From IMG/VR virus record IMGVR_UViG_2671180847_000010, positions 1 to 22,159 of that record: 22,159 bases of DNA; one strand, given 5' to 3'. This DNA comes from a virus. Lineage: Duplodnaviria; Heunggongvirae; Uroviricota; Caudoviricetes. The notes beneath the pieces were generated by a model. That model was given only the letters and a program-made list of their open reading frames with translations. It did no database searches and had not been told where the DNA came from. Shown here one piece after another: positions 1,009-13,029 of the stretch. The position numbers were made by a program, and so were the translations under genes. How positions within the stretch are numbered: the first letter of the stretch is position 1; every line of letters begins with the position of its first letter.

Positions 1009-1083
1009 GTCCTCTTAGTTAAATGGATATAACGAGCCCCTCCTAAGGGCTAATTGCAGGTTCGATTCCTGCAGGGGACACCA
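1009..1083 (+). tRNA. argW: tRNA-Arg (anticodon CCU), prophage integration target
   Basis: 75-nt sequence gtcctcttagttaaatggatataacgagcccctcctaagggctaattgcaggttcgattcctgcaggggacacca read directly; cloverleaf-compatible, ends in CCA, anticodon loop CUCCUAA. Matches my recollection of E. coli argW. Confidence 0.93.
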
Positions 1084-1244
1084 TTTATCAGTTCGCTCCC
1101 ATCCGTACCAGTCCGCAAAATCCCCTGAATATCAAGCCTCCCGTAGATTCACAGTTCGTCATGGTTCGCGTCAGATCGTTGACAGCCGCACTCCATGACG
1201 GGTAAAAAGTGGATAAAATAATTTTACCCACCGGATTTTTACCC

Positions 1245-2402
1245 ATGCTCACCGTTAAGCAGATTGAAGCAGCAAAGCCGAAAGAAAAACCATACCGCCT
1301 TCTCGATGGTAATGGCCTGTACCTTTATGTCCCTGTGTCAGGGAAAAAGGTATGGCAGCTTCGCTACAAGATTGACGGTAAGGAGAAAATCCTGACCGTC
1401 GGAAAATATCCGCTTATGACTTTGCAGGAAGCAAGGGATAAGGCATGGACTGCGAGGAAAGACATCTCGGTTGGCATCGATCCGGTAAAGGCGAAAAAGG
1501 CTTCGTCTAACAACAATTCATTTAGTGCGATTTACAAGGAATGGTACGAGCACAAGAAGCAAGTCTGGTCAGTAGGCTATGCAACTGAACTTGCCAAAAT
1601 GTTTGATGACGACATTTTACCCATCATCGGCGGTCTTGAGATTCAGGATATTGAGCCGATGCAACTGCTGGAAGTAATCCGCAGATTTGAAGATCGCGGT
1701 GCAATGGAGCGAGCCAACAAAGCCCGCAGAAGATGCGGCGAGGTTTTCCGTTACGCTATTGTCACTGGTAGGGCTAAATATAACCCGGCACCTGACCTTG
1801 CTGACGCCATGAAGGGATACCGCAAGAAGAACTTCCCGTTTTTACCTGCCGACCAGATCCCGGCATTCAACAAAGCACTTGCAACATTTTCAGGAAGTAT
1901 CGTATCGCTCATTGCGACAAAAGTTTTACGTTATACAGCCCTAAGAACGAAAGAGCTTCGTTCCATGCTATGGAAGAACGTCGATTTTGAAAACAGGATT
2001 ATCACCATCGACGCCAGTGTGATGAAGGGACGCAAAATTCATGTGGTCCCGATGTCAGACCAGGTGGTTGAACTTCTCACTACGCTAAGCTCAATCACCA
2101 AACCAGTCTCAGAGTTTGTTTTTGCCGGGCGCAACGATAAGAAAAAGCCAATCTGCGAGAACGCGGTATTGCTTGTGATCAAACAAATCGGCTATGAGGG
2201 TCTGGAAAGCGGTCACGGATTCAGGCATGAATTCAGCACGATTATGAACGAGCACGAATGGCCTGCTGACGCTATTGAAGTGCAACTGGCACATGCCAAC
2301 GGCGGATCTGTGCGCGGGATTTACAACCATGCTCAGTATCTCGATAAGCGCAGAGAAATGATGCAGTGGTGGGCGGACTGGCTTGATGAAAAGGTGGCGT
2401 AA
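1245..2402 (+). CDS. intS: P4-family tyrosine integrase (IntS-like), transcribed away from argW
   Basis: Tyrosine-recombinase C-terminal region (..HGFRHEFST.., ..RGIYNH..) and an N-terminal region of the kind P4-family integrases carry; sits immediately 3' of a tRNA gene. Start placed at in-frame ATG 1245 (385 aa) rather than the track's GTG 1209; neither has a strong SD. Confidence 0.9.
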   Translation: MLTVKQIEAAKPKEKPYRLLDGNGLYLYVPVSGKKVWQLRYKIDGKEKILTVGKYPLMTLQEARDKAWTARKDISVGIDPVKAKKASSNNNSFSAIYKEWYEHKKQVWSVGYATELAKMFDDDILPIIGGLEIQDIEPMQLLEVIRRFEDRGAMERANKARRRCGEVFRYAIVTGRAKYNPAPDLADAMKGYRKKNFPFLPADQIPAFNKALATFSGSIVSLIATKVLRYTALRTKELRSMLWKNVDFENRIITIDASVMKGRKIHVVPMSDQVVELLTTLSSITKPVSEFVFAGRNDKKKPICENAVLLVIKQIGYEGLESGHGFRHEFSTIMNEHEWPADAIEVQLAHANGGSVRGIYNHAQYLDKRREMMQWWADWLDEKVA

Positions 2403-2630: not shown

Positions 2631-4538
2631 CTAAGCATTAAACCCTCCGACTCTTACTTTTAACGTGGTAAGCTTAGTATTTACTGTTATTTTTAAAGTT
2701 CCCGAGCCTGCAGCAACAGAGAATAAGCGGCGACCTCCAGATGTACCACCTCCAGCAGGAGGGGTGGTATCGAGTTCGCCTGTGATCGATATTGAAATGG
2801 TACCCTCACGGTTAGCAACGAGTAGCTCTAAACATTCAGCCCAGGTGTTTTGTGCAGAAGACCAAGCATCGATAAGGATTCTCTGTGTCGTTCTGTTTGG
2901 TATTGCGATGGATTTTACTTCACCTTCATTTACCAGACCTTGAAAACGAGTTCCATAATCTATCCAGCTAATGTTATAACCTGCATTTGTTGCAGGGTCT
3001 TGAGAGGTATACCAGGTCTGGGTTCGCACTCCAGTTTGACCGATTGTCAGTAGAGGACGAGCAAACTGATCGCGGTGAATGTATGCGTTAGCCCTTATTC
3101 CATTGCTTTGCAGATCTATATCTGCTGTTCGAGGGTTAGGAAAAGTAGCTTTTCCACCAACATCAAAAACATCATAATGATTTGCAACTGCAGGAATCCA
3201 TCCGTTCCTGTCCAGATTTCTAAAGAAATCCTCGAAAGCCAGCCAGTATGATTGCTGATGACCTAAAAGGTTAGGGTGAACAGTCTGTATTTCAGGGGTC
3301 CGGTCAAATAATGCCGTTTCACCATATTTAGCAACAGCATCAAACCAGTATTTTTCCACATCGATAAGCACGCAACCCATTTCTACAGCGATTTTCCTGA
3401 TCGCATCGTTTCCTCGAAGGAAGCGGACACCTGCTTGAATATTTACCCCATTCCACTCAAACGTGACATTTGAGTTTGCGGCAGATGGTATAATGTCATT
3501 ATCAGAGACTGGGGCCGGAGAAGATGAAGGCCATATTTGAGAAATTCCAGCCGGCATGCTCCAGCTATATTCAGAAATATTCGGATGAGGTGTGGTTGTT
3601 AGCACAACATCCCCGCCGGCCTCCCTGACTAAATTAATAGCATTTCGAAGGCGCTGTTTAAATCCGTTTTCATTGAATGTTTGCCCGGCATTATATTGTG
3701 CGGTAGGAAAATCATTCATTCCATATATAAACAAAGCAATATCAGGATATATTCCTTCAGTAACAACTTCAGGCCATTGGTTAACAATAAAATTATTTAT
3801 CGTTGAACCATTAACAGATTTGTTTGTGAAGTTAATGGGATAAATACGCTGCTTATTTAACGTATCGTTCATATACTCAAAAAATTTAGCAACTGGTGCC
3901 TGTGTTGCTGGATCAGGAAGCGTAGCACCAACCCCAACAGAAGAACCAAACCCATAGAGTCGAAATAAGTTCTGATAGCCAGAAACCCCATGCCGATAAG
4001 CTGTTAATTTATTGACGAAATTTGGGAAAAGGGCCTGTGATGATCCAGACGCAGCACGAATAGAAGCCTCTACCGTTCTTCCTGTTTCAGTCGCAACTAG
4101 GCTAGCACCTTCTTTTGAAGATAATCGGCAGTTAAAATCTGATATCTCATCAATTTCTGATTGTATTGCTGCCAGTAGCTCATCTACGTAGTGACGTAAC
4201 TGGTCAGGCTCGTATTTTAGAACATTAGGAAAATAGAACTGCTGAGCACCATATGCATCATAAACAGCCATAGAATGGCCTTGCACAGTAACGAACTTGG
4301 CAATCTGCCCGTTATATACCGGATATCCAGCAGCGTTAATGATGATTGGTTGCGAAACAGGAACATGAGAGCCGTCTTCGTTCTCTACATAAACCTGAAT
4401 CTGGTTTTCTGGACTTACCGGGTCAGTGTCAATTTTACCGATATAAATTTTTCCATTGGCTACGGCTTTAAAAGAACGAGCCATAGTGAAGAGTTGCGAA
4501 GGCATGCTTACCACAACATTGGCTGTAATGTCTGTCAT
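2631..4538 (-). CDS. Tailspike protein: P22-like head-binding N-terminal domain fused to a non-P22 receptor-binding region with SGNH-hydrolase-like motifs
   Basis: N-terminal ~115 aa ([11 protein letters not shown]...[18 protein letters not shown]...[11 protein letters not shown]) matches the conserved P22 gp9 head-binding domain as I recall it. Downstream region carries ordered motifs GFGSS (aa 196-200), NGST (243-246), GMND (273-276, nt 3711-3722) and VHP (420-422), resembling SGNH blocks I, II, III and V. Confidence 0.9.
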
Positions 4539-4670: not shown

Positions 4671-4928
4671 ATGATGTACAGCAAATACGATGAGGCGCAG
4701 TTCCACTTGAGGCTTACGCACGAGTTGCACGCTAAGATTAAGCAACGTGCAAAAATGAATAACAGGTCTATCAATTCCGAAATTGTGGCTACGATGGAAG
4801 AATCACTCTCCAAACCATCACCTGTAAGCGGGTATCGTGATGAAGAAGAGAGGCTGGCCTCATTAATCTCGGAACGAGTAAAAGAAGTTGTGGCTGATAT
4901 CCTTAGAAAAGAAAAAACCCGCAATTAA
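4671..4928 (+). CDS. mnt: Mnt-like ribbon-helix-helix repressor (immI-type)
   Basis: 85-aa product with an RHH N-terminus (FHLRLTHELHAKIKQRA..NNRSINSEIVATMEESL) and the segment SKPSPVSGYR, closely resembling P22 Mnt as recalled. SD GAGG 5 nt upstream of ATG 4671. The track's 217-aa ORF (4275..4928) is an upstream extension that overlaps the tailspike in antisense. Confidence 0.8.
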   Translation: MMYSKYDEAQFHLRLTHELHAKIKQRAKMNNRSINSEIVATMEESLSKPSPVSGYRDEEERLASLISERVKEVVADILRKEKTRN

Positions 4929-4936
4929 GCGGGTTT
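4915..4936 (-). terminator. Rho-independent terminator closing the minus-strand antirepressor operon; mnt stop codon lies in the loop
   Basis: Stem AAACCCGC / GCGGGTTT with 6-nt loop aattaa. On the minus strand the hairpin is followed by TTTTTTC TTTTC; on the plus strand the U-tract is poor. The mnt TAA (4926-4928) is in the loop. Confidence 0.75.
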
Positions 4937-4942
4937 AGTTGG

Positions 4943-5164
4943 TTAGTTATCAAAAAGTCCGTACGTTTCTTCTTCTTCAGGTGTAAGGGGAAGAATCTCT
5001 ACTCTATCTATAGATACCTTTTCAATGTACCCATGAGGTCTACTTAAAATTAAAGCTCTCTCATGCCACAGAACTCCAAGAATGTGATACCTTCCAGCAT
5101 CTCCTTTTACCCTGGCTCTTCCTTTGATTCTTGGCGGCATAATGCCATATCTTTTCTTTGCCAT
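4943..5164 (-). CDS. Hypothetical 73-aa protein, translationally coupled to the upstream antirepressor gene
   Basis: Start ATG overlaps the stop of the upstream gene (TAATG arrangement at 5162-5166); ORF ends just before the operon terminator. No recognisable domain. Confidence 0.5.
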   Translation of the reverse strand: MAKKRYGIMPPRIKGRARVKGDAGRYHILGVLWHERALILSRPHGYIEKVSIDRVEILPLTPEEEETYGLFDN

Positions 5165-5889
5165 TATGCAACATTGCTCCCATGAATCAGGTGTTGTAGT
5201 GCTTTAACACCCTCCGCATTGTAGCGGAATGCTTCCACCTGTTTGCTTGAATGCGCAGATTTATCCAAGAAGAACTTCCCGTACTGCTCAGTTTTGAGGT
5301 TGTTTGCGTTAGCAATGCGACCAATCTTGTTTGCCGTTACTCCAAGCTGCTCTGCAACCTCCCCTGCTGAGTAGTAATGCTCTTCTATTGCTGGAAGAGG
5401 TATTGCATTAAAACCAACTATCGGGTTGATTATGCTTGCTGCCGCAGTCTGCTTTGCTTCCGGCGCAAGATTTGGCATCAAATCTAACAGATTGGTAACA
5501 GCTTCAACCGTCATTTTCAATGTTCGAGCCTGGCGATACTCAACAAGTCCACTCGACGATTTACCGCTTTTAATGTGCGCTTCTTGCATACTTTCAAGTT
5601 TGTCTACAAGTGTTCGGCGAACTGCTTTAGATTCGCGAGCAGCAACACGAAGCGCCTGCTTGATAGTCATGGAGATAACATCAATGTCAGCCCCGTTTTT
5701 CCGACCTACACTTTTTGTGTAGGTCTCGCCCTCCAATTCATCCTCAATTTTCTCGATGAATTTGTTGTTACGTACTGATGGCTCTCCACATAACTTGCGA
5801 GCTTCATTAACCATCATCAGAAGACTTTGGCTGTCAATGGTTTTATCCGTGACAACGGATCCGATGTTTGCTACATTCTTCAAAGTCAT
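5164..5889 (-). CDS. Putative phage antirepressor (Ant/KilAC-like C-terminal region)
   Basis: 241 aa from ATG 5889 with SD AAGGAA upstream (track ORF begins further upstream at 5940). C-terminal segment YSAGEVAEQLGVTANKIGRIANANNLK... resembles KilAC/ANT antirepressor domains; domain call is from memory and needs a profile search. Confidence 0.7.
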   Translation of the reverse strand: MTLKNVANIGSVVTDKTIDSQSLLMMVNEARKLCGEPSVRNNKFIEKIEDELEGETYTKSVGRKNGADIDVISMTIKQALRVAARESKAVRRTLVDKLESMQEAHIKSGKSSSGLVEYRQARTLKMTVEAVTNLLDLMPNLAPEAKQTAAASIINPIVGFNAIPLPAIEEHYYSAGEVAEQLGVTANKIGRIANANNLKTEQYGKFFLDKSAHSSKQVEAFRYNAEGVKALQHLIHGSNVA

Positions 5890-5977
5890 TAGGCATTCCT
5901 TATGTGGTAGTAAGGGTGTGACATAGGCCGCCAGCAGCACACTGGCGGTTTTCTTTTTGCGCCGTCCGGCGCACCAA

Positions 5978-6604
5978 TCAATGAATCCATTCCTCGCCGC
6001 GCAGTTTTGTCAGCATTGGCTGAGCGTTCTTTACGACAAAATTGTTGGTATCAAGATTCTTCATTTCACGAAGAAGTGATTTCTTGGTTTCTTCTGACAT
6101 ATAGCGAGTCTCATATGCAATATCGTAAATTCTTCCTGAAAGCTCAGAACCAATTTGCTTCATTCCTGGGTAGATGTGTTTGCACATTTGTTGACTCTTC
6201 TCCATCCACAATTGTAAGTAGCAGAGATTAACCAGTTCTTCGTCAGTAAACTGTTTTGCAATCGGTGAGCATTCTGCCTGCCGATCCAAAATATCCAGCA
6301 CCCAGCGGCGGAACTCTTTGGCTACCGGAGTGCGAGCAAACATCGCGATTAGGTGGGCACCGCGTAGTGAGAAAACTCGCACTTTTTTGCGATAATTTCC
6401 TGAGGTACTCACTTCGAGTACCTGAGTCATTCCGGCGCTAAACTCATCGCTATACTTGTTATAAATCATTGTTACTGCACGGCTATTTGCATATTTAAGT
6501 GCAGATGCAATATTAGATGATGTAAACCAAACACCATGCATATCACGGGTGGGCACCAACTCAACTCCGTGGAAGTTGTAATCTGATTTTGCTACAATAT
6601 TCAT
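5978..6604 (-). CDS. Bro-N domain protein (antirepressor-like)
   Basis: Bro-N signature (..GVWFTSSNIASALKY..KKVRVFSLRGAHLIAMFARTPVAKEFRRWVLDIL..). Start placed at ATG 6604 preceded by SD AAGGAA; the track ORF starts at an upstream TTG (6709). Confidence 0.8.
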   Translation of the reverse strand: MNIVAKSDYNFHGVELVPTRDMHGVWFTSSNIASALKYANSRAVTMIYNKYSDEFSAGMTQVLEVSTSGNYRKKVRVFSLRGAHLIAMFARTPVAKEFRRWVLDILDRQAECSPIAKQFTDEELVNLCYLQLWMEKSQQMCKHIYPGMKQIGSELSGRIYDIAYETRYMSEETKKSLLREMKNLDTNNFVVKNAQPMLTKLRGEEWIH

Positions 6605-6677
6605 GTTAGTTTCCTTGCATACGGTTACTGACATAGAGGCCCGGTTTGTGTTCGCGCACTGCCGGGCTTCACTATTT

Positions 6678-6851
6678 TTATTGGATGACAACATCGCCCT
6701 TTGCCTCAAGTTTCATCAATAACTCCATTCGATAAGCTATCTCTGCCTGAATTGACCTATGGCATCTTTTTGCTGATTCGCGGATATGTGAATCAACCTT
6801 TTCTGTAAAACGAACCTGACGCGGCTTGATGGAAGATATCTTTTCAGTCAT
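6678..6851 (-). CDS. Arc-like ribbon-helix-helix protein (57 aa), first gene of the antirepressor operon; absent from the ORF track
   Basis: Hand translation of the minus strand: MTEKISSIKPRQVRFTEKVDSHIRESAKRCHRSIQAEIAYRMELLMKLEAKGDVVIQ. SD AGGAG 6 nt upstream of the ATG. RHH pattern (beta strand QVRFTEKV, then two helices) and RSIQAEIAYRME resemble P22 Arc RSVNSEIYQRVME as recalled. Below the track's apparent 60-aa cutoff. Confidence 0.6.
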   Translation of the reverse strand: MTEKISSIKPRQVRFTEKVDSHIRESAKRCHRSIQAEIAYRMELLMKLEAKGDVVIQ

Positions 6852-6950
6852 TATGCACTCCTGTTTTTGAAAAACTCATAATCTCACTTTTTGTAGTTTG
6901 ATTATTCACTCACACTCAGTATGAGTCAATGAATTTTTTATGGTGAACTA
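6852..6950. promoter_or_regulatory. Divergent control region between the antirepressor operon (-) and the CI-like repressor gene (+), with palindromic operator candidates
   Basis: 99-bp spacer between divergent start codons. Contains a 13-bp palindrome GTTTTTGAAAAAC (6863-6875) and an inverted repeat ACTCA-gta-TGAGT (6914-6926). Confidence 0.5.
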
Positions 6951-7592
6951 ATGAATTTTGACGATCAATTCCCATCAAGAGTATCTCTGGCAAGACAGTC
7001 CAGGGGTATGACGCAGGCGCAGTTGTCAAAATTAGCTGGTGTTGTTCAACGTCAAATAGCTGCATACGAGGGTGGTGAGGCTAAACCACGGCTTCGTGTA
7101 TTGCAGGCATTAGCCAACGCATTAGGCACTACGGCTGAGTGGTTAGCTCTGGGTGAAGGTCAGGGGCCTGGAACAAAAAACGTCATGCCTGACGTTCTGG
7201 TAAAGCAAATACCAATCCTCAAACTAGATGAAGTTATGCATTACCTAAACACAGGTGAACATTCATCGTCTAGATTTCATCCGGCAATATACAATGTTGG
7301 TGACTCTGCATTTGCATTGACTATTGAAGGTGAAGCTATGACTACAAGTTCAGGTATTAGCTTTCCCAGAGGATCAGTTGTCACGTTCAGCCCTCTAGTA
7401 AAAGCTAAAAGCAAAGATTATGTAATAGCATCATTGGATAAAGAGCAAATATTGAGCTTCAAGCAGGTTTACATTGGTGAAATAGAGACAAACTTAGTAT
7501 CCCTAAACCCAATGTATCCTAATATTCTTGTTAGAAATGAAGATGTTAGTATTTTGGCAACCGCAGTTTACCTTGAAATCCCGTTGCTTTGA
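6951..7592 (+). CDS. CI/LexA-like repressor: XRE-type HTH plus peptidase S24-like domain with Ala at the nucleophile position (predicted non-cleavable)
   Basis: N-terminal HTH (MTQAQLSKLAGVVQRQIAAYE). C-terminal region aligns by eye to lambda CI: DSAFALTIEGEAM vs CI DSAFWLEVEGNSM, SFKQV vs TFKKL, LNPMYP vs LNPQYP. Nucleophile position is Ala129 (codon gct at 7335-7337); Lys171 is retained; no Ala-Gly in the linker. Confidence 0.9.
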   Translation: MNFDDQFPSRVSLARQSRGMTQAQLSKLAGVVQRQIAAYEGGEAKPRLRVLQALANALGTTAEWLALGEGQGPGTKNVMPDVLVKQIPILKLDEVMHYLNTGEHSSSRFHPAIYNVGDSAFALTIEGEAMTTSSGISFPRGSVVTFSPLVKAKSKDYVIASLDKEQILSFKQVYIGEIETNLVSLNPMYPNILVRNEDVSILATAVYLEIPLL

Positions 7593-7652: not shown

Positions 7653-8042
7653 GTGAAGCTATTTCTTGCTGCTATGTTCTTATTCATATCTTTTGGGGCT
7701 ACAGCAGAGTGCTGGGTCGTTGGAGATATGCGCGGAATAAGCTATTCAGAACGAAATAATTTCCATCCGGAAGAAGATGGTTTTAGTGGAACATTCATCA
7801 TTAAGACAAGCGGTGAAGATGCTAGCATCACATATTCTGGGACAGATGCGGGCGGCATGGCTTACAAAGTATTGTCTAAAAACTCCATCATAGGAATCGG
7901 CGCGAATGGCGAAACTCAACGCGTTATCGACTCATGGGTAATACATCCTACTGGAACAGTTTTAATGTCAAAAACCATTTCCGGTTATGGAAATATGGAT
8001 TCAACCAAAGCTTTTGTTGGAAAAGTAAAAAGAAAATGTTAA
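7653..8042 (+). CDS. Hypothetical exported protein (signal peptide), probably co-transcribed with the CI-like repressor
   Basis: GTG start 5 nt after a strong SD AAGGAGG. N-terminus MKLFLAAMFLFISFGATA-E looks like a Sec signal peptide with an A-x-A cleavage site; two Cys in the mature part. No terminator between it and the repressor gene. No recognisable domain. Confidence 0.7.
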   Translation: MKLFLAAMFLFISFGATAECWVVGDMRGISYSERNNFHPEEDGFSGTFIIKTSGEDASITYSGTDAGGMAYKVLSKNSIIGIGANGETQRVIDSWVIHPTGTVLMSKTISGYGNMDSTKAFVGKVKRKC

Positions 8043-8808: not shown

Positions 8809-10977
8809 TTACTCCTGTGTCATTCCGCTTAGCGATACTACAATCCCAGCCCTCGACAAACGCTGGAACTCTTCGTTTCCTAGTGCATCGCGAATTGCTT
8901 TTACGGCGGCCTTATTTGCCATAAATCTGCGTTCCGCCGCCGCTAATGCGCCATCACTTGCCCCAACCTTAACTGCCTTTGTTGCCTCTTGAACAGCCTT
9001 TTCAATAGCGTAACGACCACTTCTGGTTGCGGATAATTTCGCTATCGATCCTTTTGCTATCGCATCAATTGCTCCACCTGCAGCGCCACCAACTATTGCT
9101 CCAATAACACCTCCTCCAGAGAACCCTGCGATAGCGCCAGCGGTTGGAAAAGCGCCAGACAATACGCTCTCTAAAACTGGATGAAGGCCATTCTCAAGAG
9201 TGCTAATGGCTGGCATAGAGCGCCCTGTCTGTTCAACATATCGAAGTGGCTTTGTTGCAGCTCTTGCAAGTTCTCCGTATGAACTTGTAATCCTGCCAAG
9301 TTCTGGAGAATATCGACTAATTGCCTTCACGTTTTGTGGGGTAAGAATAGTCGCGATATGCTTAATTCCAGCCCCTTCAGACTTACCTCCGCGTACCCCT
9401 TGCGATACCGCATCTTGTAATATTGATGCAATTGCTGGCGCGCGTTCCGACTCAGGTAGGGCGCTTATTATTTTATGAAACTGACCTGTTCCACTTTTTG
9501 CTGAGCCCTGTAACGCCTTAGAGCCATTAGTTACTAACTGATCAGTTGCAAGGTCTCTACCAAACGCTGCTTCAGCCTGTTCTTGTGCTGTAAATCTTGC
9601 CTTTGACAGATCATTAGCTTTTTGCCAGTCATCAAGAAAACCGCCATTTTGAGCCATTATGCGCATATCTTCCGTTGCTGCATCACGAAGCTCAGCCATG
9701 CGCCTTGCCGTATTTGCCTCACCAGACCTTATATACTTCTGCTCTGCGTCAGCAAGTTTACTTCGCCATGCCTTCATGGCATCAAACGTGATTCCTTTTT
9801 TACCAGTTTTAGCATAAGCAGATGCGAATTGTTTCATCTCAGGAGTTAGCGGCATGCCAGCCAAAATATCACCCTGAATTGTAGCGTTCAGGTTTGACAT
9901 TCTGGCCTTTGCGTCAGGCATCGTGGAGCGGACGCTATCCCATGCGGCCTTTTCTGAATTTTTCATTTTATCAATGCTTGCCAAAACCCTCTGTTTTATG
10001 GCTGCACTTTTTTCTGATGCAGTTCCTGCTTCAGCCCCAAACTCATCCAATGCTGAGTTAAATTTCGACTCTATTTCACTGAATGCTTTGGTGTGTGCAT
10101 CCTGTGTAATTCCGGGCTTTGACGCCAGAATCCCCTCCGCCTGAGCAAGACCACGACTACCTGATCTCATGCCAGGAGTTAATGCGTTGATATCTATTCC
10201 AGCAGTATCTGCTGCTTTTGCTATTTCGTCTGACACGTTAGCTGACTGTCTGGCAATAATCTCTCTTCCTGTACCAGACTTTGCCATTTTCGAAACATCA
10301 TTAGCAGAATTCAGTGCTGCACCACCAAGAGCCTGTGAAACCCTTGGCGCAATAACGCGCCCGACACCTGAAAGAACGCCTTGAGCACCAATATTGATAC
10401 CACCGTTAATGGCAGCATTTTGTGCAAAGTCGCCCTCCTGATTTGCAGCATCAGCAAGAGAACCTGCAATCATGTTTCCTGCGGAACCGATATCTCCAGC
10501 GAGCTTTGCTGTCGCTCCAGCAGCTTTTGCCGCTGTGCCAATTGGCAGGAGATACCCACCAAATGTTTCACCGGCTTGCGCCCAACGGTCTGTCGGTCGA
10601 TCGACAGGGCGATAAACATCATCCAAAACCTTGGGGCCACCAAGCCCATGGCTGATTGCATTAATCAGACTTGCGCCACCCTGCAATACGTCAAATGGTA
10701 TGTTTACCAGACCACGACCAGCCTGTTCTGCAATTTGCCCTGCACTTTGACCACCTGTGAGCCAATCGCCAGCTTGTTGCATCAATGATGGTTCTTCTTT
10801 CTGCTGCTGATGCGGAGGGTATGCAGCATAAAACTGATCTCTTGCTTCAGCCCATTTGTCACCAGCCTTAGGGGCAACAACCTCATCAAAATATTGCGCT
10901 TGAGCCTGTGCTTTCTGTTCTTCAGTTAACGCCTGATACTGTGGAGAAGCGATAACATCTTTCCATGCTTTAGCCAT
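8809..10977 (-). CDS. DNA ejection (internal virion) protein, P22 gp16-position
   Basis: Last gene of the late operon, in the position of P22 gene 16. Start overlaps the gp20 stop (ATGA). Gly/Ala-rich hydrophobic segment near the C-terminus. Confidence 0.85.
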
Positions 10978-12326
10978 TAATCACCCCATAAAGACGAGAA
11001 ACCGGACTTATTGCTGTCGCTTCCTGATTTTCGCTCACTAACATATGTGTCATAACCTGATGAACTATATCCCATTGATTCAGCCTCCCTTGCTGCAACC
11101 TTTTGAAATACAGAATATTGCGATCGGATTTCAGATAACTGTTTTCTGACGACCTCTTCAGGCTGTGTTATATCGAGTTTCGCGATCAGGTTTTCCAGTT
11201 TTTGGCCTTCAGCATTGGAGAGGCTACCCATACCTCGCATAGTCTGCACGTTCTGGACAAACGCACCCGACTTTAATTCTTCTATCGCATTACGGTTTGC
11301 AAGCCCTTCAGCACTTGTGAAGCCATCTATATTTCTTCCTTCGAAGCGACCGATACCTTCAAGCTCCTTCTTACCAAGCAAAGAATCAATTTTCTCTATC
11401 CCTCGCTCACCAGTAATCAACGCATTGTTGTAATTATTGTTGCCATCAAGCCATCTCTTAGCCTGAGACATTCTGGCTGACGTTGCAGCTTTACCGGTTA
11501 GAGGATCAATTCCCGTCGCTGCTATCTGTGAGTTAAGAGACAAAACATCCATATCCTGAAGTTGTCCTGCTCTTTCAAGGGCCGCCTGTGACTGCTTAAA
11601 CACATACTTGTCGTGATTCAGTCTTGCCATTTGAGCCTTATAGGAAAGATCCTGCCCCCTAATAGCCCTCGCATTCGTCATGTCATTATTGCGAATGGTT
11701 TCGTTAATTCTTTGCTGCTCCTGCTGGCGACCAACCATCTTATCCTGAACAGCAAAAGCCTTTTCTGGCCCAAGTGCACCGAGAGACATAGTAGTCAGCA
11801 TGTGTGATAGCTGCTCTGGATTCTGGATACCTGTCTGAATCATCCAGTCAGCATTCGCACCCACGCGATTTAACCTGTCCTTGTTGTCAGTAATGAATTT
11901 ACTGTAGGCTTCCGGTCCCTGAGAAAGAGCGACGTTAGCTCTCATGGCTAAATCGCCCATATCGTTGCGTTGCTGCTCATTAAGACCGGAAAACGCCTGT
12001 TGTGCCTGTGCAACAAACGCTGGATTTTCCTGGGCAAACTTAAATAGTCCCGATGGATCACCAGAAGCCCATGCATCAGCGTGAACCTTATTGAACGCAC
12101 TAATCGCTTTCTGTTGCTGTTCCTGCTTATAAATATCAGCAACTCCAGCCAGACCACGTAATGCGGTCAGACCAACGTTATTTGCACCTGATCGAGCCAG
12201 TTCATTGTTTTCGCGGATCAGACCAAGCGTTGCGTTAATGTCGCTTGCCTTTGGCGCATTCTCATTTTGCGCACCGATGCCAGCCAGAAAACCACCAGAA
12301 TTAATACCCTGTTGCCACGTAGCCAT
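10977..12326 (-). CDS. DNA ejection protein, P22 gp20-like
   Basis: 449 aa, in the position of P22 gene 20 between gp7 and gp16 homologues; Gln/Ala-rich predicted helical protein. Confidence 0.85.
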
Positions 12327-12336
12327 TGATTACCCC

Positions 12337-13029
12337 TTAAAACAACGAGCCAAGCAGACCAAGACCAGCACCGATACCAGCACCCCACGGAGTTGATAGC
12401 TCGAGAGCACTGGCTATGCCACCACCCAAAAGCGCACCGGATGCAGCACCACTAACACCCTGCTGCAATGCTGACGGTCTGTTGGCATTTGCCGCTGCAA
12501 GAGCCGCACTTTGCTGCGAAATCTGACTCATGTTGTTGGCATATGTCTGCCCGGCGTTTGCCTGCCCCTGAAGAGCGCCAAGACCGATATTTGCCAGGTT
12601 GTTGTAATTGTTCATTTGTCCAGATAGCCATTGCTGACCAAGCGTTGGTGCGATTGTTGCTAACTGATTACTGGTTGCGGTGGAACCCAATCCACCTGTT
12701 GCTTCCGCTGCCGCCAGACTCTGATAGCGAGCCTGACCAGCAAGATCTTTGTACTGCTGAGAGTTGTAATACTGGTTAAGCGCCTGACCTTGCCCCTCCA
12801 GAGACGATAAGTTCTCGAGGCTGCCGACATACTTCTCAGCCAGAGGAGTAAACGGCTTCAGGTTATTCATGATGGTGTTGAACTGCTGATTTTGCAGGTC
12901 TGCGGCATACTTCTGAGCTTCTGCTGCATACTTAGCGCTTTTATCAGAACTGCCACCTTTCCCACCTTTTTCAGGGCAATAAGGTTCCTCGCCGCGCAGT
13001 TTTCTGCCCAGCTTAAATGCATATAACAT
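12337..13029 (-). CDS. DNA ejection protein, P22 gp7-like
   Basis: 230 aa; N-terminus MLYAF.LGRKLRGEE and Gly-rich hydrophobic C-terminus (..STPWGAGIGAGLGLLGSLF) as in P22 gp7 (recalled); correct operon position. Confidence 0.85.
   Translation of the reverse strand: MLYAFKLGRKLRGEEPYCPEKGGKGGSSDKSAKYAAEAQKYAADLQNQQFNTIMNNLKPFTPLAEKYVGSLENLSSLEGQGQALNQYYNSQQYKDLAGQARYQSLAAAEATGGLGSTATSNQLATIAPTLGQQWLSGQMNNYNNLANIGLGALQGQANAGQTYANNMSQISQQSAALAAANANRPSALQQGVSGAASGALLGGGIASALELSTPWGAGIGAGLGLLGSLF

Follow-up and report, generated by a model that had tools for sequence, protein, structure and literature searches.

A P22-type tailspike from an Escherichia coli prophage joined to a predicted SGNH O-acetyl esterase module

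The tailspike gene of a P22-like (Lederbergvirus-type) prophage located at argW of E. coli encodes a P22-type head-binding domain followed by a receptor-binding part that resembles SGNH/GDSL hydrolases in its sequence profile, in four motif blocks and in its predicted fold. Taken as a whole, the homology and modeling data are best explained by a polysaccharide O-acetyl esterase tailspike with an acquired receptor-binding cassette and a Ser-His dyad-like active site, and we regard this explanation as probable. The gene lies in a 22,159-nt stretch of viral DNA (record IMGVR_UViG_2671180847_000010), which was analyzed at its full length and is referred to below as the window. All residue numbers are those of the 635-aa tailspike protein.

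Results

The Tailspike Gene Belongs to a P22-like Prophage at argW

The window opens with E. coli chromosomal sequence (yfdC, argW, and intS) and continues into a P22-like prophage (Table 1). The order of the genes, with ejection proteins, antirepressor and Arc-like genes, tailspike, intS and tRNA-Arg following one another, fits that expected around a P22-like tailspike. Within the immI-like block, a predicted cleavable repressor occupies the place that Mnt has in P22 and could couple antirepressor expression to SOS induction.

Table 1. Features of the window that relate to the tailspike gene (aa, residues of the tailspike)
Feature	Position	Strand	Basis
tRNA-Arg(CCT) argW, prophage attachment site adjoining yfdC	1009..1083	+	ARAGORN, E. 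coli annotation
IntS-type integrase, convergent with the tailspike gene	1209..2402	+	ORF listing; annotated intS in E. coli genomes
Terminator-like hairpin 3' of the tailspike stop codon	2575..2600	-	Consensus scan, pattern match only
Tailspike gene, 635 aa + stop codon	2631..4538	-	ORF listing
C-terminal beta-sandwich, variable distal domain, aa 484-635	2634..3089	-	
Low-confidence linker between the two domains, aa 445-483	3090..3206	-	pLDDT 37-51
SGNH/GDSL hydrolase domain, aa 184-444, with a ~50-aa insertion at aa ~320-370	3207..3989	-	
Block V, QTVHPN (aa 418-423), H421 = predicted general base	3270..3287	-	H421-P-N invariant
Block III, GMND (aa 273-276), N275 = predicted oxyanion-hole asparagine	3711..3722	-	Invariant 39/39
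Block II, NGST (aa 243-246), G244 = predicted oxyanion-hole glycine	3801..3812	-	G244, S245 invariant
Block I, GFGSSV (aa 196-201), S200 = predicted nucleophile	3936..3953	-	Invariant 39/39
Start of the shared receptor-binding cassette (neck), aa 138-183	3990..4127	-	Homology onset
Helical linker, aa 116-137	4128..4193	-	Helix in AlphaFold2 model
P22-type head-binding (virion anchor) domain, aa 1-115	4194..4538	-	Pfam PF09008, PDB match, nt identity
immI-like block between ejection genes and tailspike	4674-7592		
Arc-like gene	~4674-4928	+	
73-aa protein, no assigned function	4943-5164	-	
Antirepressor genes, two	5164-5940 and 5978-6709	-	
CI/LexA-like HTH + Peptidase_S24 repressor, divergently transcribed	6951-7592	+	
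gp7/gp20/gp16 ejection protein homologues, upstream of the tailspike, same strand	8809-13029	-	

Two further genes of the prophage deserve mention. A 129-aa protein encoded on the plus strand (7653-8042) has a signal-peptide-like N terminus (MKLFLAAMFLFISFGATAEC...), matches phrog_2651 and stands out by its low GC content (40.5%); it may be a candidate for a moron or a superinfection-exclusion function. The N-terminal ~230 residues of the 722-aa gp16-type ejection protein (8809-10977, minus strand) also match PHROGs annotated as transglycosylase and "lytic tail fiber," and a Pfam SLT domain is found in a related gp16-type copy on another contig with an identical tailspike (L006).

NCBI lists an identical 635-aa protein, present on at least 14 contigs, as "phage tailspike protein" and as "SGNH/GDSL hydrolase family protein"; both Pfam domains are already assigned to it there. 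The identical tailspike is found in P22-like prophages (L006-L011) that have clearly different immunity and accessory genes. On one contig (L007:6001-7908), it lies directly beside dacD-sbmC-yeeA, with no integrase adjacent, and this copy marks either a second chromosomal insertion site or a prophage remnant. The exact chimera was absent from the cultured phages in the collection and from the complete RefSeq E. coli genomes searched.

The Head-Binding Domain and the Junction with the Receptor-Binding Part

Pfam Head_binding (PF09008) covers residues 1-113 of the tailspike (E = 1.5e-66). In a PDB sequence search, residues 1-123 matched Sf6 gp14 (7sg7; E = 3e-64), to which they are 86% identical by tblastn, and the DNA encoding residues 1-115 shares 93-95% nucleotide identity with the tailspike genes of other E. 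coli P22-like prophages. In the same PDB search, similarity to the tailspikes of P22, Sf6, and HK620 breaks off at residues ~119-123 in every case, from which we conclude that the rest of the protein is unrelated to the endorhamnosidase. Both halves of the first interpretation of this gene, made from the sequence only (hereafter, the sequence-only reading), are thereby confirmed: the first ~115 residues are a P22 head-binding domain, and the remainder does not resemble the P22 endorhamnosidase.

The 22-residue linker that follows (residues 116-137) resembles neither parental lineage, and a search of 5,426 complete E. coli genomes with its coding sequence gave no match. The implication is that the linker either came from a third donor or diverged rapidly where the two parts recombined. 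Homology to a 720-aa E. coli prophage protein (see below) and to phage K30 gp17.3 starts just beyond the linker, at a neck motif around residue 138. The GA-L-V/I-G junction motif of the neck is also found in the tailspikes of phages g341c and HF4s. HF4s, a P22-like phage that infects the G7C host, was considered as a further carrier of an esterase tailspike and rejected, for its Pfam matches are of the beta-helix type and the alignment beyond residue ~140 is spurious.

The Receptor-Binding Part Has an SGNH Fold and a Non-canonical Active Site

The Pfam profile Lipase_GDSL_2 aligns with residues 208-428 at 40.4 bits (E = 5.7e-10), above its gathering score of 32.9 bits, in a match that begins downstream of block I. 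To follow conservation, we used an alignment of 39 homologues reaching down to 32% identity, in which G196, G198, S199, S200, G244, S245, G273-M-N-D276, and H421-P-N423 are invariant. With a profile match above the cut-off and blocks that are invariant in 39 homologues, the motifs are not a product of chance. The four motifs listed in the sequence-only reading, GFGSS at residue 196, NGST at 243, GMND at 273, and VHP at 420, were found exactly at these positions, and their key columns are the invariant ones.

Alignment with related proteins allowed us to assign likely roles to individual residues. Block II aligns with "SGDT" of g341c, block III with GIND of g341c and with block III of the esterase LAE5 (5jd3), and block V with "HPNLAGHQ" of LAE5. 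Both BLAST and profile alignments place G198-S199-S200 over the G-D-S of g341c and of G7C gp63.1, and S200 is therefore the predicted nucleophile. Of the two serines put forward earlier for this role, S200 is thus retained and S199, which sits at the Asp of GDS, is dropped. The proposal of block V at VHP likewise holds for H421, which is invariant, and fails for the triad Asp expected three residues upstream, where Q418 is found. Across the family, this position is occupied by Gln in 26 of the 39 homologues and by Glu in the other 13, never by Asp, so that the canonical block V pattern D-x-x-H is lacking. Despite Q418, the sequence evidence supports placing the receptor-binding part in the SGNH/GDSL superfamily.

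Outside the four SGNH blocks, H318 (in TTTPHP, residues 314-319) and D393 and E395 (in D-V-E, residues 393-395) are also invariant across the family. Together with the ~50-aa insertion, which falls between blocks III and V, these residues may help to form the groove for the substrate or stand in for the missing triad acid.

An AlphaFold2 monomer model of residues 125-635, built on the family alignment (mean pLDDT 82.4), consists of a helical neck, an alpha/beta domain (residues ~184-444), a linker (~450-480), and a beta-sandwich (~484-635). In the predicted structure, the alpha/beta domain adopts the three-layer alpha/beta/alpha SGNH fold. When the model was compared with the PDB using Foldseek, the best matches were carbohydrate acetyl-esterases, namely the acetyl-mannan esterase CEX (6hh9/6hfz; E = 3.5e-9), Axe2, and LAE5, and the SGNH esterase domain of G7C gp63.1 was also matched. 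Searches of the PDB by sequence were less informative: a single-sequence search matched the head-binding domain only, and a profile search gave weak SGNH matches (LAE5, E = 1.2e-4).

A beta-helix appeared neither among the fold matches nor in the profile results. The idea that the protein is a conventional beta-helix depolymerase tailspike, whose SGNH motifs are coincidental, is refuted by these fold and profile data, and we found nothing in its favor; its probability is negligible. Profile match, invariant blocks, and fold matches are three independent lines of evidence that support the central proposal of the sequence-only reading, in which the head-binding domain of P22 is combined with a receptor-binding module of the SGNH esterase kind. 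Two kinds of check that it suggested, profile search and structure prediction, came out the same way, with Lipase_GDSL_2 scoring above the Pfam threshold and a predicted fold that matches acetyl-esterases and gp63.1 instead of a beta-helix glycosidase.

A Model for Tailspike Function

In the mechanism that we propose, residues 1-115 would plug the protein into the tail, and the spike would be a trimer, as assumed by homology with the P22 and Sf6 tailspikes. After the helical linker, the cassette would present the neck, the SGNH hydrolase domain, and the C-terminal beta-sandwich in this order, and the SGNH domain, as an O-acetyl esterase, would deacetylate a polysaccharide on the host surface. 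S200 would attack the acetyl ester with H421 as the base, while the backbone amides of S200 and G244 and the side chain of N275 would stabilize the oxyanion. With either Q418 or a main-chain carbonyl orienting H421, the site would resemble a Ser-His dyad and do without the usual Asp. Repeated rounds of binding and deacetylation would move the virion down to the membrane and leave the polymer uncut, a mode of action demonstrated for G7C gp63.1. Glycan binding and specificity would probably come from the C-terminal sandwich, which evolves faster.

With Q418 in place of the triad Asp and GSS instead of GDS in block I, activity could be reduced or altered. In the extreme case, the SGNH domain would be a dead or very weak "pseudo-esterase" that serves as a carbohydrate-binding adhesin only. 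The change of Asp to Gln in block V and of Asp to Ser in block I could be read this way, as could the K30 homologue, an accessory second receptor-binding protein beside the large gp17 fiber. We nevertheless find a pseudo-esterase improbable. Even homologues of only 32% identity retain the nucleophile Ser, both residues of the oxyanion hole, and the catalytic His without exception, a constancy that would be difficult to account for if the domain did not catalyze, and related SGNH receptor-binding proteins from prophages hydrolyze pNPA (PMC13123978). In addition, SGNH enzymes that have no functional block V Asp, among them many CE2 esterases and a Streptomyces scabies esterase, are active Ser-His dyads (PMC9487903). 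Hence Q418 represents a variation and is not evidence of inactivity.

A catalytically active domain could also act as a GDSL-type lipase or deacylase on outer-membrane lipids or on lipid A acyl chains, instead of on sugar acetyls. This is very unlikely indeed: among the fold matches whose substrate has been described, carbohydrate acetyl-esterases and the G7C esterase rank highest, phage receptor-binding proteins of the same class tested so far are all polysaccharide deacetylases, and an SGNH domain placed distally on the spike would meet glycans first. An esterase directed at polysaccharide acetyl groups is thus the activity that we prefer.

The Receptor-Binding Cassette Is Found on Different Anchors

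The DNA encoding residues ~141-608 is 96% identical to that of a 720-aa "SGNH/GDSL hydrolase family protein" (WP_064764887, WP_000218898), and over residues 131-635 the tailspike shares 95% amino acid identity with this E. coli prophage protein. The 720-aa protein has a 215-aa N-terminal anchor of its own and belongs to another prophage type, at yfgI, where its gene precedes a holin/GH19 endolysin cassette. Klebsiella prophages encode proteins that are 85-88% identical to the cassette.

More distantly, the cassette shares 49-63% identity over residues ~138-635 with phage "tail fibers," and residues 139-634 match PHROG 18703, annotated as "tail fiber," with E = 5e-290. Members of this PHROG, from phages of Klebsiella and E. 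coli, are proteins of the Przondovirus phages K30 (gp17.3), KpV289, KpV766, and KL01, of the N4-like phage P184, and of the ~145-kb phages VLCpiM5b and AV124. They have the same non-canonical GSS and Q/E-x-x-H blocks as the tailspike described here but are attached to T7-type, N4-type, or myovirus anchors, or are free-standing second receptor-binding proteins; gp17.3 of K30, for instance, is a second receptor-binding protein after the gp17 fiber. The P22 head-binding domain is absent from all phage proteins listed in PHROG 18703.

The two domains of the cassette have diverged to different extents. In P0044, identity is 86% for the SGNH domain and 44% for the C-terminal sandwich, and in distant members an SGNH domain of 45-48% identity is joined to unrelated C termini. 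The better conservation of the SGNH domain fits a conserved catalytic unit combined with a variable binding or specificity unit.

Judging from its homologues, the receptor module is a mobile cassette that was acquired horizontally. The exchange of modules surmised in the sequence-only reading is borne out by this mosaic homology, in which a near-identical cassette is carried by different anchors. The other argument once offered for a swap, AT-richness, does not hold up as well. The receptor-binding part (43.0% GC) is indeed below the virion genes (46-53%), but there is no compositional step at the domain junction, the head-binding domain having 42.6% GC and the immunity region 40-45%. Since these are as AT-rich as the receptor module, base composition does not mark the swap, and we discarded GC content as a marker. 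With P22-, T7-, N4-type, and myovirus anchors, the predicted esterase cassette provides a clean natural example of anchor swapping.

Comparison with Known Deacetylating Receptor-Binding Proteins

A tailspike made of a head-binding and a GDSL domain is not new. The precedent is Salmonella phage g341c, a Lederbergvirus that we take to be the same phage as c341. Its tailspike, gp14, contains Head_binding and Lipase_GDSL_2 (PF09008 + PF13472), as in our case, with a nearly identical head-binding domain and with blocks I-III that can be aligned. Its SGNH domain, however, is only remotely related to that of our tailspike (hhalign probability 87%, E = 4e-6, blocks I-III only); the 792-aa protein has the canonical GDS and D-x-x-H, and its C-terminal ~430 residues are unrelated. 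With only blocks I-III alignable and unrelated C-terminal halves, the receptor parts of the two proteins are not orthologous.

The two phages also differ in what adjoins the tailspike. In g341c (L003:3001-6918), an O-polysaccharide acetyltransferase gene lies after the GDSL-type tailspike gene and converges on it, and the phage thus encodes an O-acetyl-removing enzyme, the tailspike, as well as an O-acetyl-adding one. In our prophage, no O-acetyltransferase gene adjoins the tailspike: the 228-nt spacer between tailspike and intS contains a terminator-like hairpin only, with no ORF and no conversion gene in the ORF listing. It had been proposed that the esterase "replaces" an Sf6-type O-acetyltransferase. 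A virion esterase takes acetyl groups off at adsorption, and the acetyltransferase of a conversion gene puts them on in the lysogen. These are chemically opposite reactions that belong to different stages, and g341c encodes both, in adjacent genes; the notion of a replacement is therefore unsupported, and a conversion gene is simply absent from the spacer before int. As for the activity of the Salmonella phage, baseplate parts of c341 deacetylate O-antigen, according to the passage of PMC5380687 that cites the original work (Iwashita & Kanegasaki 1976).

The protein gp63.1 of the E. coli podovirus G7C (PDB 4qnl) is the structural and functional reference, and its SGNH fold is similar to that of the domain described here. 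At the sequence level, hhalign gave a probability of 14% and phmmer found nothing. The anchor of gp63.1 is Tail_spike_N/gp10-like and its block I a canonical GDS, whereas our tailspike has a P22-type anchor and GSS; the Pfam domains Tail_spike_N, Gp63_3rd, G7C_GBD, and G7C_C are all present in gp63.1, and none is found in our tailspike.

Temperate phages of Klebsiella provide another parallel. The prophage SGNH tail fibers 164_08-KL2 and 174_38-KL55 hydrolyze pNP-acetate and were proposed to be capsule deacetylases (PLoS Biol 2026, PMC13123978). They are SGNH receptor-binding proteins of temperate phages, as is the protein studied here, but have fiber-type, not P22-type, anchors. SGNH receptor-binding proteins have also been noted in Przondovirus and Mydovirus (PLoS Biol 2026, PMC13123978; 2026 preprint).

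On the strength of these homologies, our protein is most likely a member of the known deacetylating receptor-binding proteins, in a subfamily with a slightly unusual active site. It is not the founder of a new class, given that its architecture, the concept, and even its database annotation were there before. Deacetylating receptor-binding proteins are now recognized as a frequent alternative to depolymerases, above all in temperate phages, and few have a defined substrate. Possible uses include the prediction or engineering of host range and an enzyme that strips acetyl decorations from E. coli or Klebsiella capsules.

Capsule or O-Antigen as the Candidate Substrate

Complete-genome carriers of a near-identical module fall into at least two lineages. 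We inspected the capsule and O-antigen loci of one genome from each of two lineages, BE311 and WCHEC005784, both with a 95%-identical, differently anchored cassette. BE311, from a piglet, has a group 1 capsule locus (galF-wzi-wza-wzb-wzc-wbaP-...-wzx-gnd; L014:15928-34094) that includes an acetyltransferase gene; the adjoining O9-family O-antigen cluster is broken by IS elements, with wzm truncated and wbdC fragmentary. WCHEC005784, from a human, has a different group 1 locus, which is initiated by wcaJ and includes an acyltransferase gene (L017:6556-27822), and an O9-family cluster in which wzm is truncated next to an IS element. O8/O9 polymannoses are not known to be O-acetylated. Among 5,426 complete E. 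coli genomes, wzi is present in 577. LS992185 was not counted as an independent data point, being of the same lineage as WCHEC005784, and an attempt to locate the capsule locus of strain IH5 by synteny failed on a rearranged genome.

These Klebsiella-like group 1 capsule loci, together with the concentration of the family in Klebsiella and in the capsule phage K30, make a Klebsiella-type group 1 capsule bearing O-acetyl groups our preferred candidate substrate, ahead of O-antigen, with a chance of being right that we put at about even. Coming from two lineages with different K loci and a differently anchored homologue, the association with capsule is a lead that hints at such a substrate. That a P22-like coliphage can be specific for capsule is known from CUS-3, in which a head-binding domain 92.5% identical to ours is joined to a capsule-specific receptor module, though that module is an endosialidase that cleaves the K1 capsule and not an esterase.

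The same esterase mechanism could instead be directed at O-acetylated O-antigen, as in G7C gp63.1 and c341. Characterized P22-like tailspikes mostly target O-antigen, G7C and c341 (the latter as cited in the passage of PMC5380687 mentioned above) deacetylate it, and a 2026 preprint suggests non-capsular targets, such as O-antigen, for Przondovirus SGNH tailspikes. We consider an O-antigen substrate somewhat unlikely, given the O9-family clusters with wzm truncated beside an IS element in both inspected carriers, the concentration of the family in capsulated Klebsiella and in the capsule phage K30, and the capsule specificity of CUS-3.

If the substrate is capsular, as we favor, an acetylated epitope might be shared across K-types, because a near-identical cassette is present in E. 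coli strains that differ in their K loci, and one of 85-88% identity in Klebsiella prophages. One could then envisage a P22-like coliphage that adsorbs to group 1 capsules of the Klebsiella type by removing their O-acetyl groups with a non-canonical SGNH site, without depolymerizing the capsule, the tailspike acting as a semi-generalist "capsule key." This full scenario is speculative, and we would sooner bet against it than for it, by a good measure. If true, the "capsule key" would be one that travels among at least five phage architectures and two genera of hosts.

One further feature of the loci inspected is that the capsule locus of WCHEC005784 contains, immediately ahead of gnd, a gene for a "right-handed parallel beta-helix" protein.
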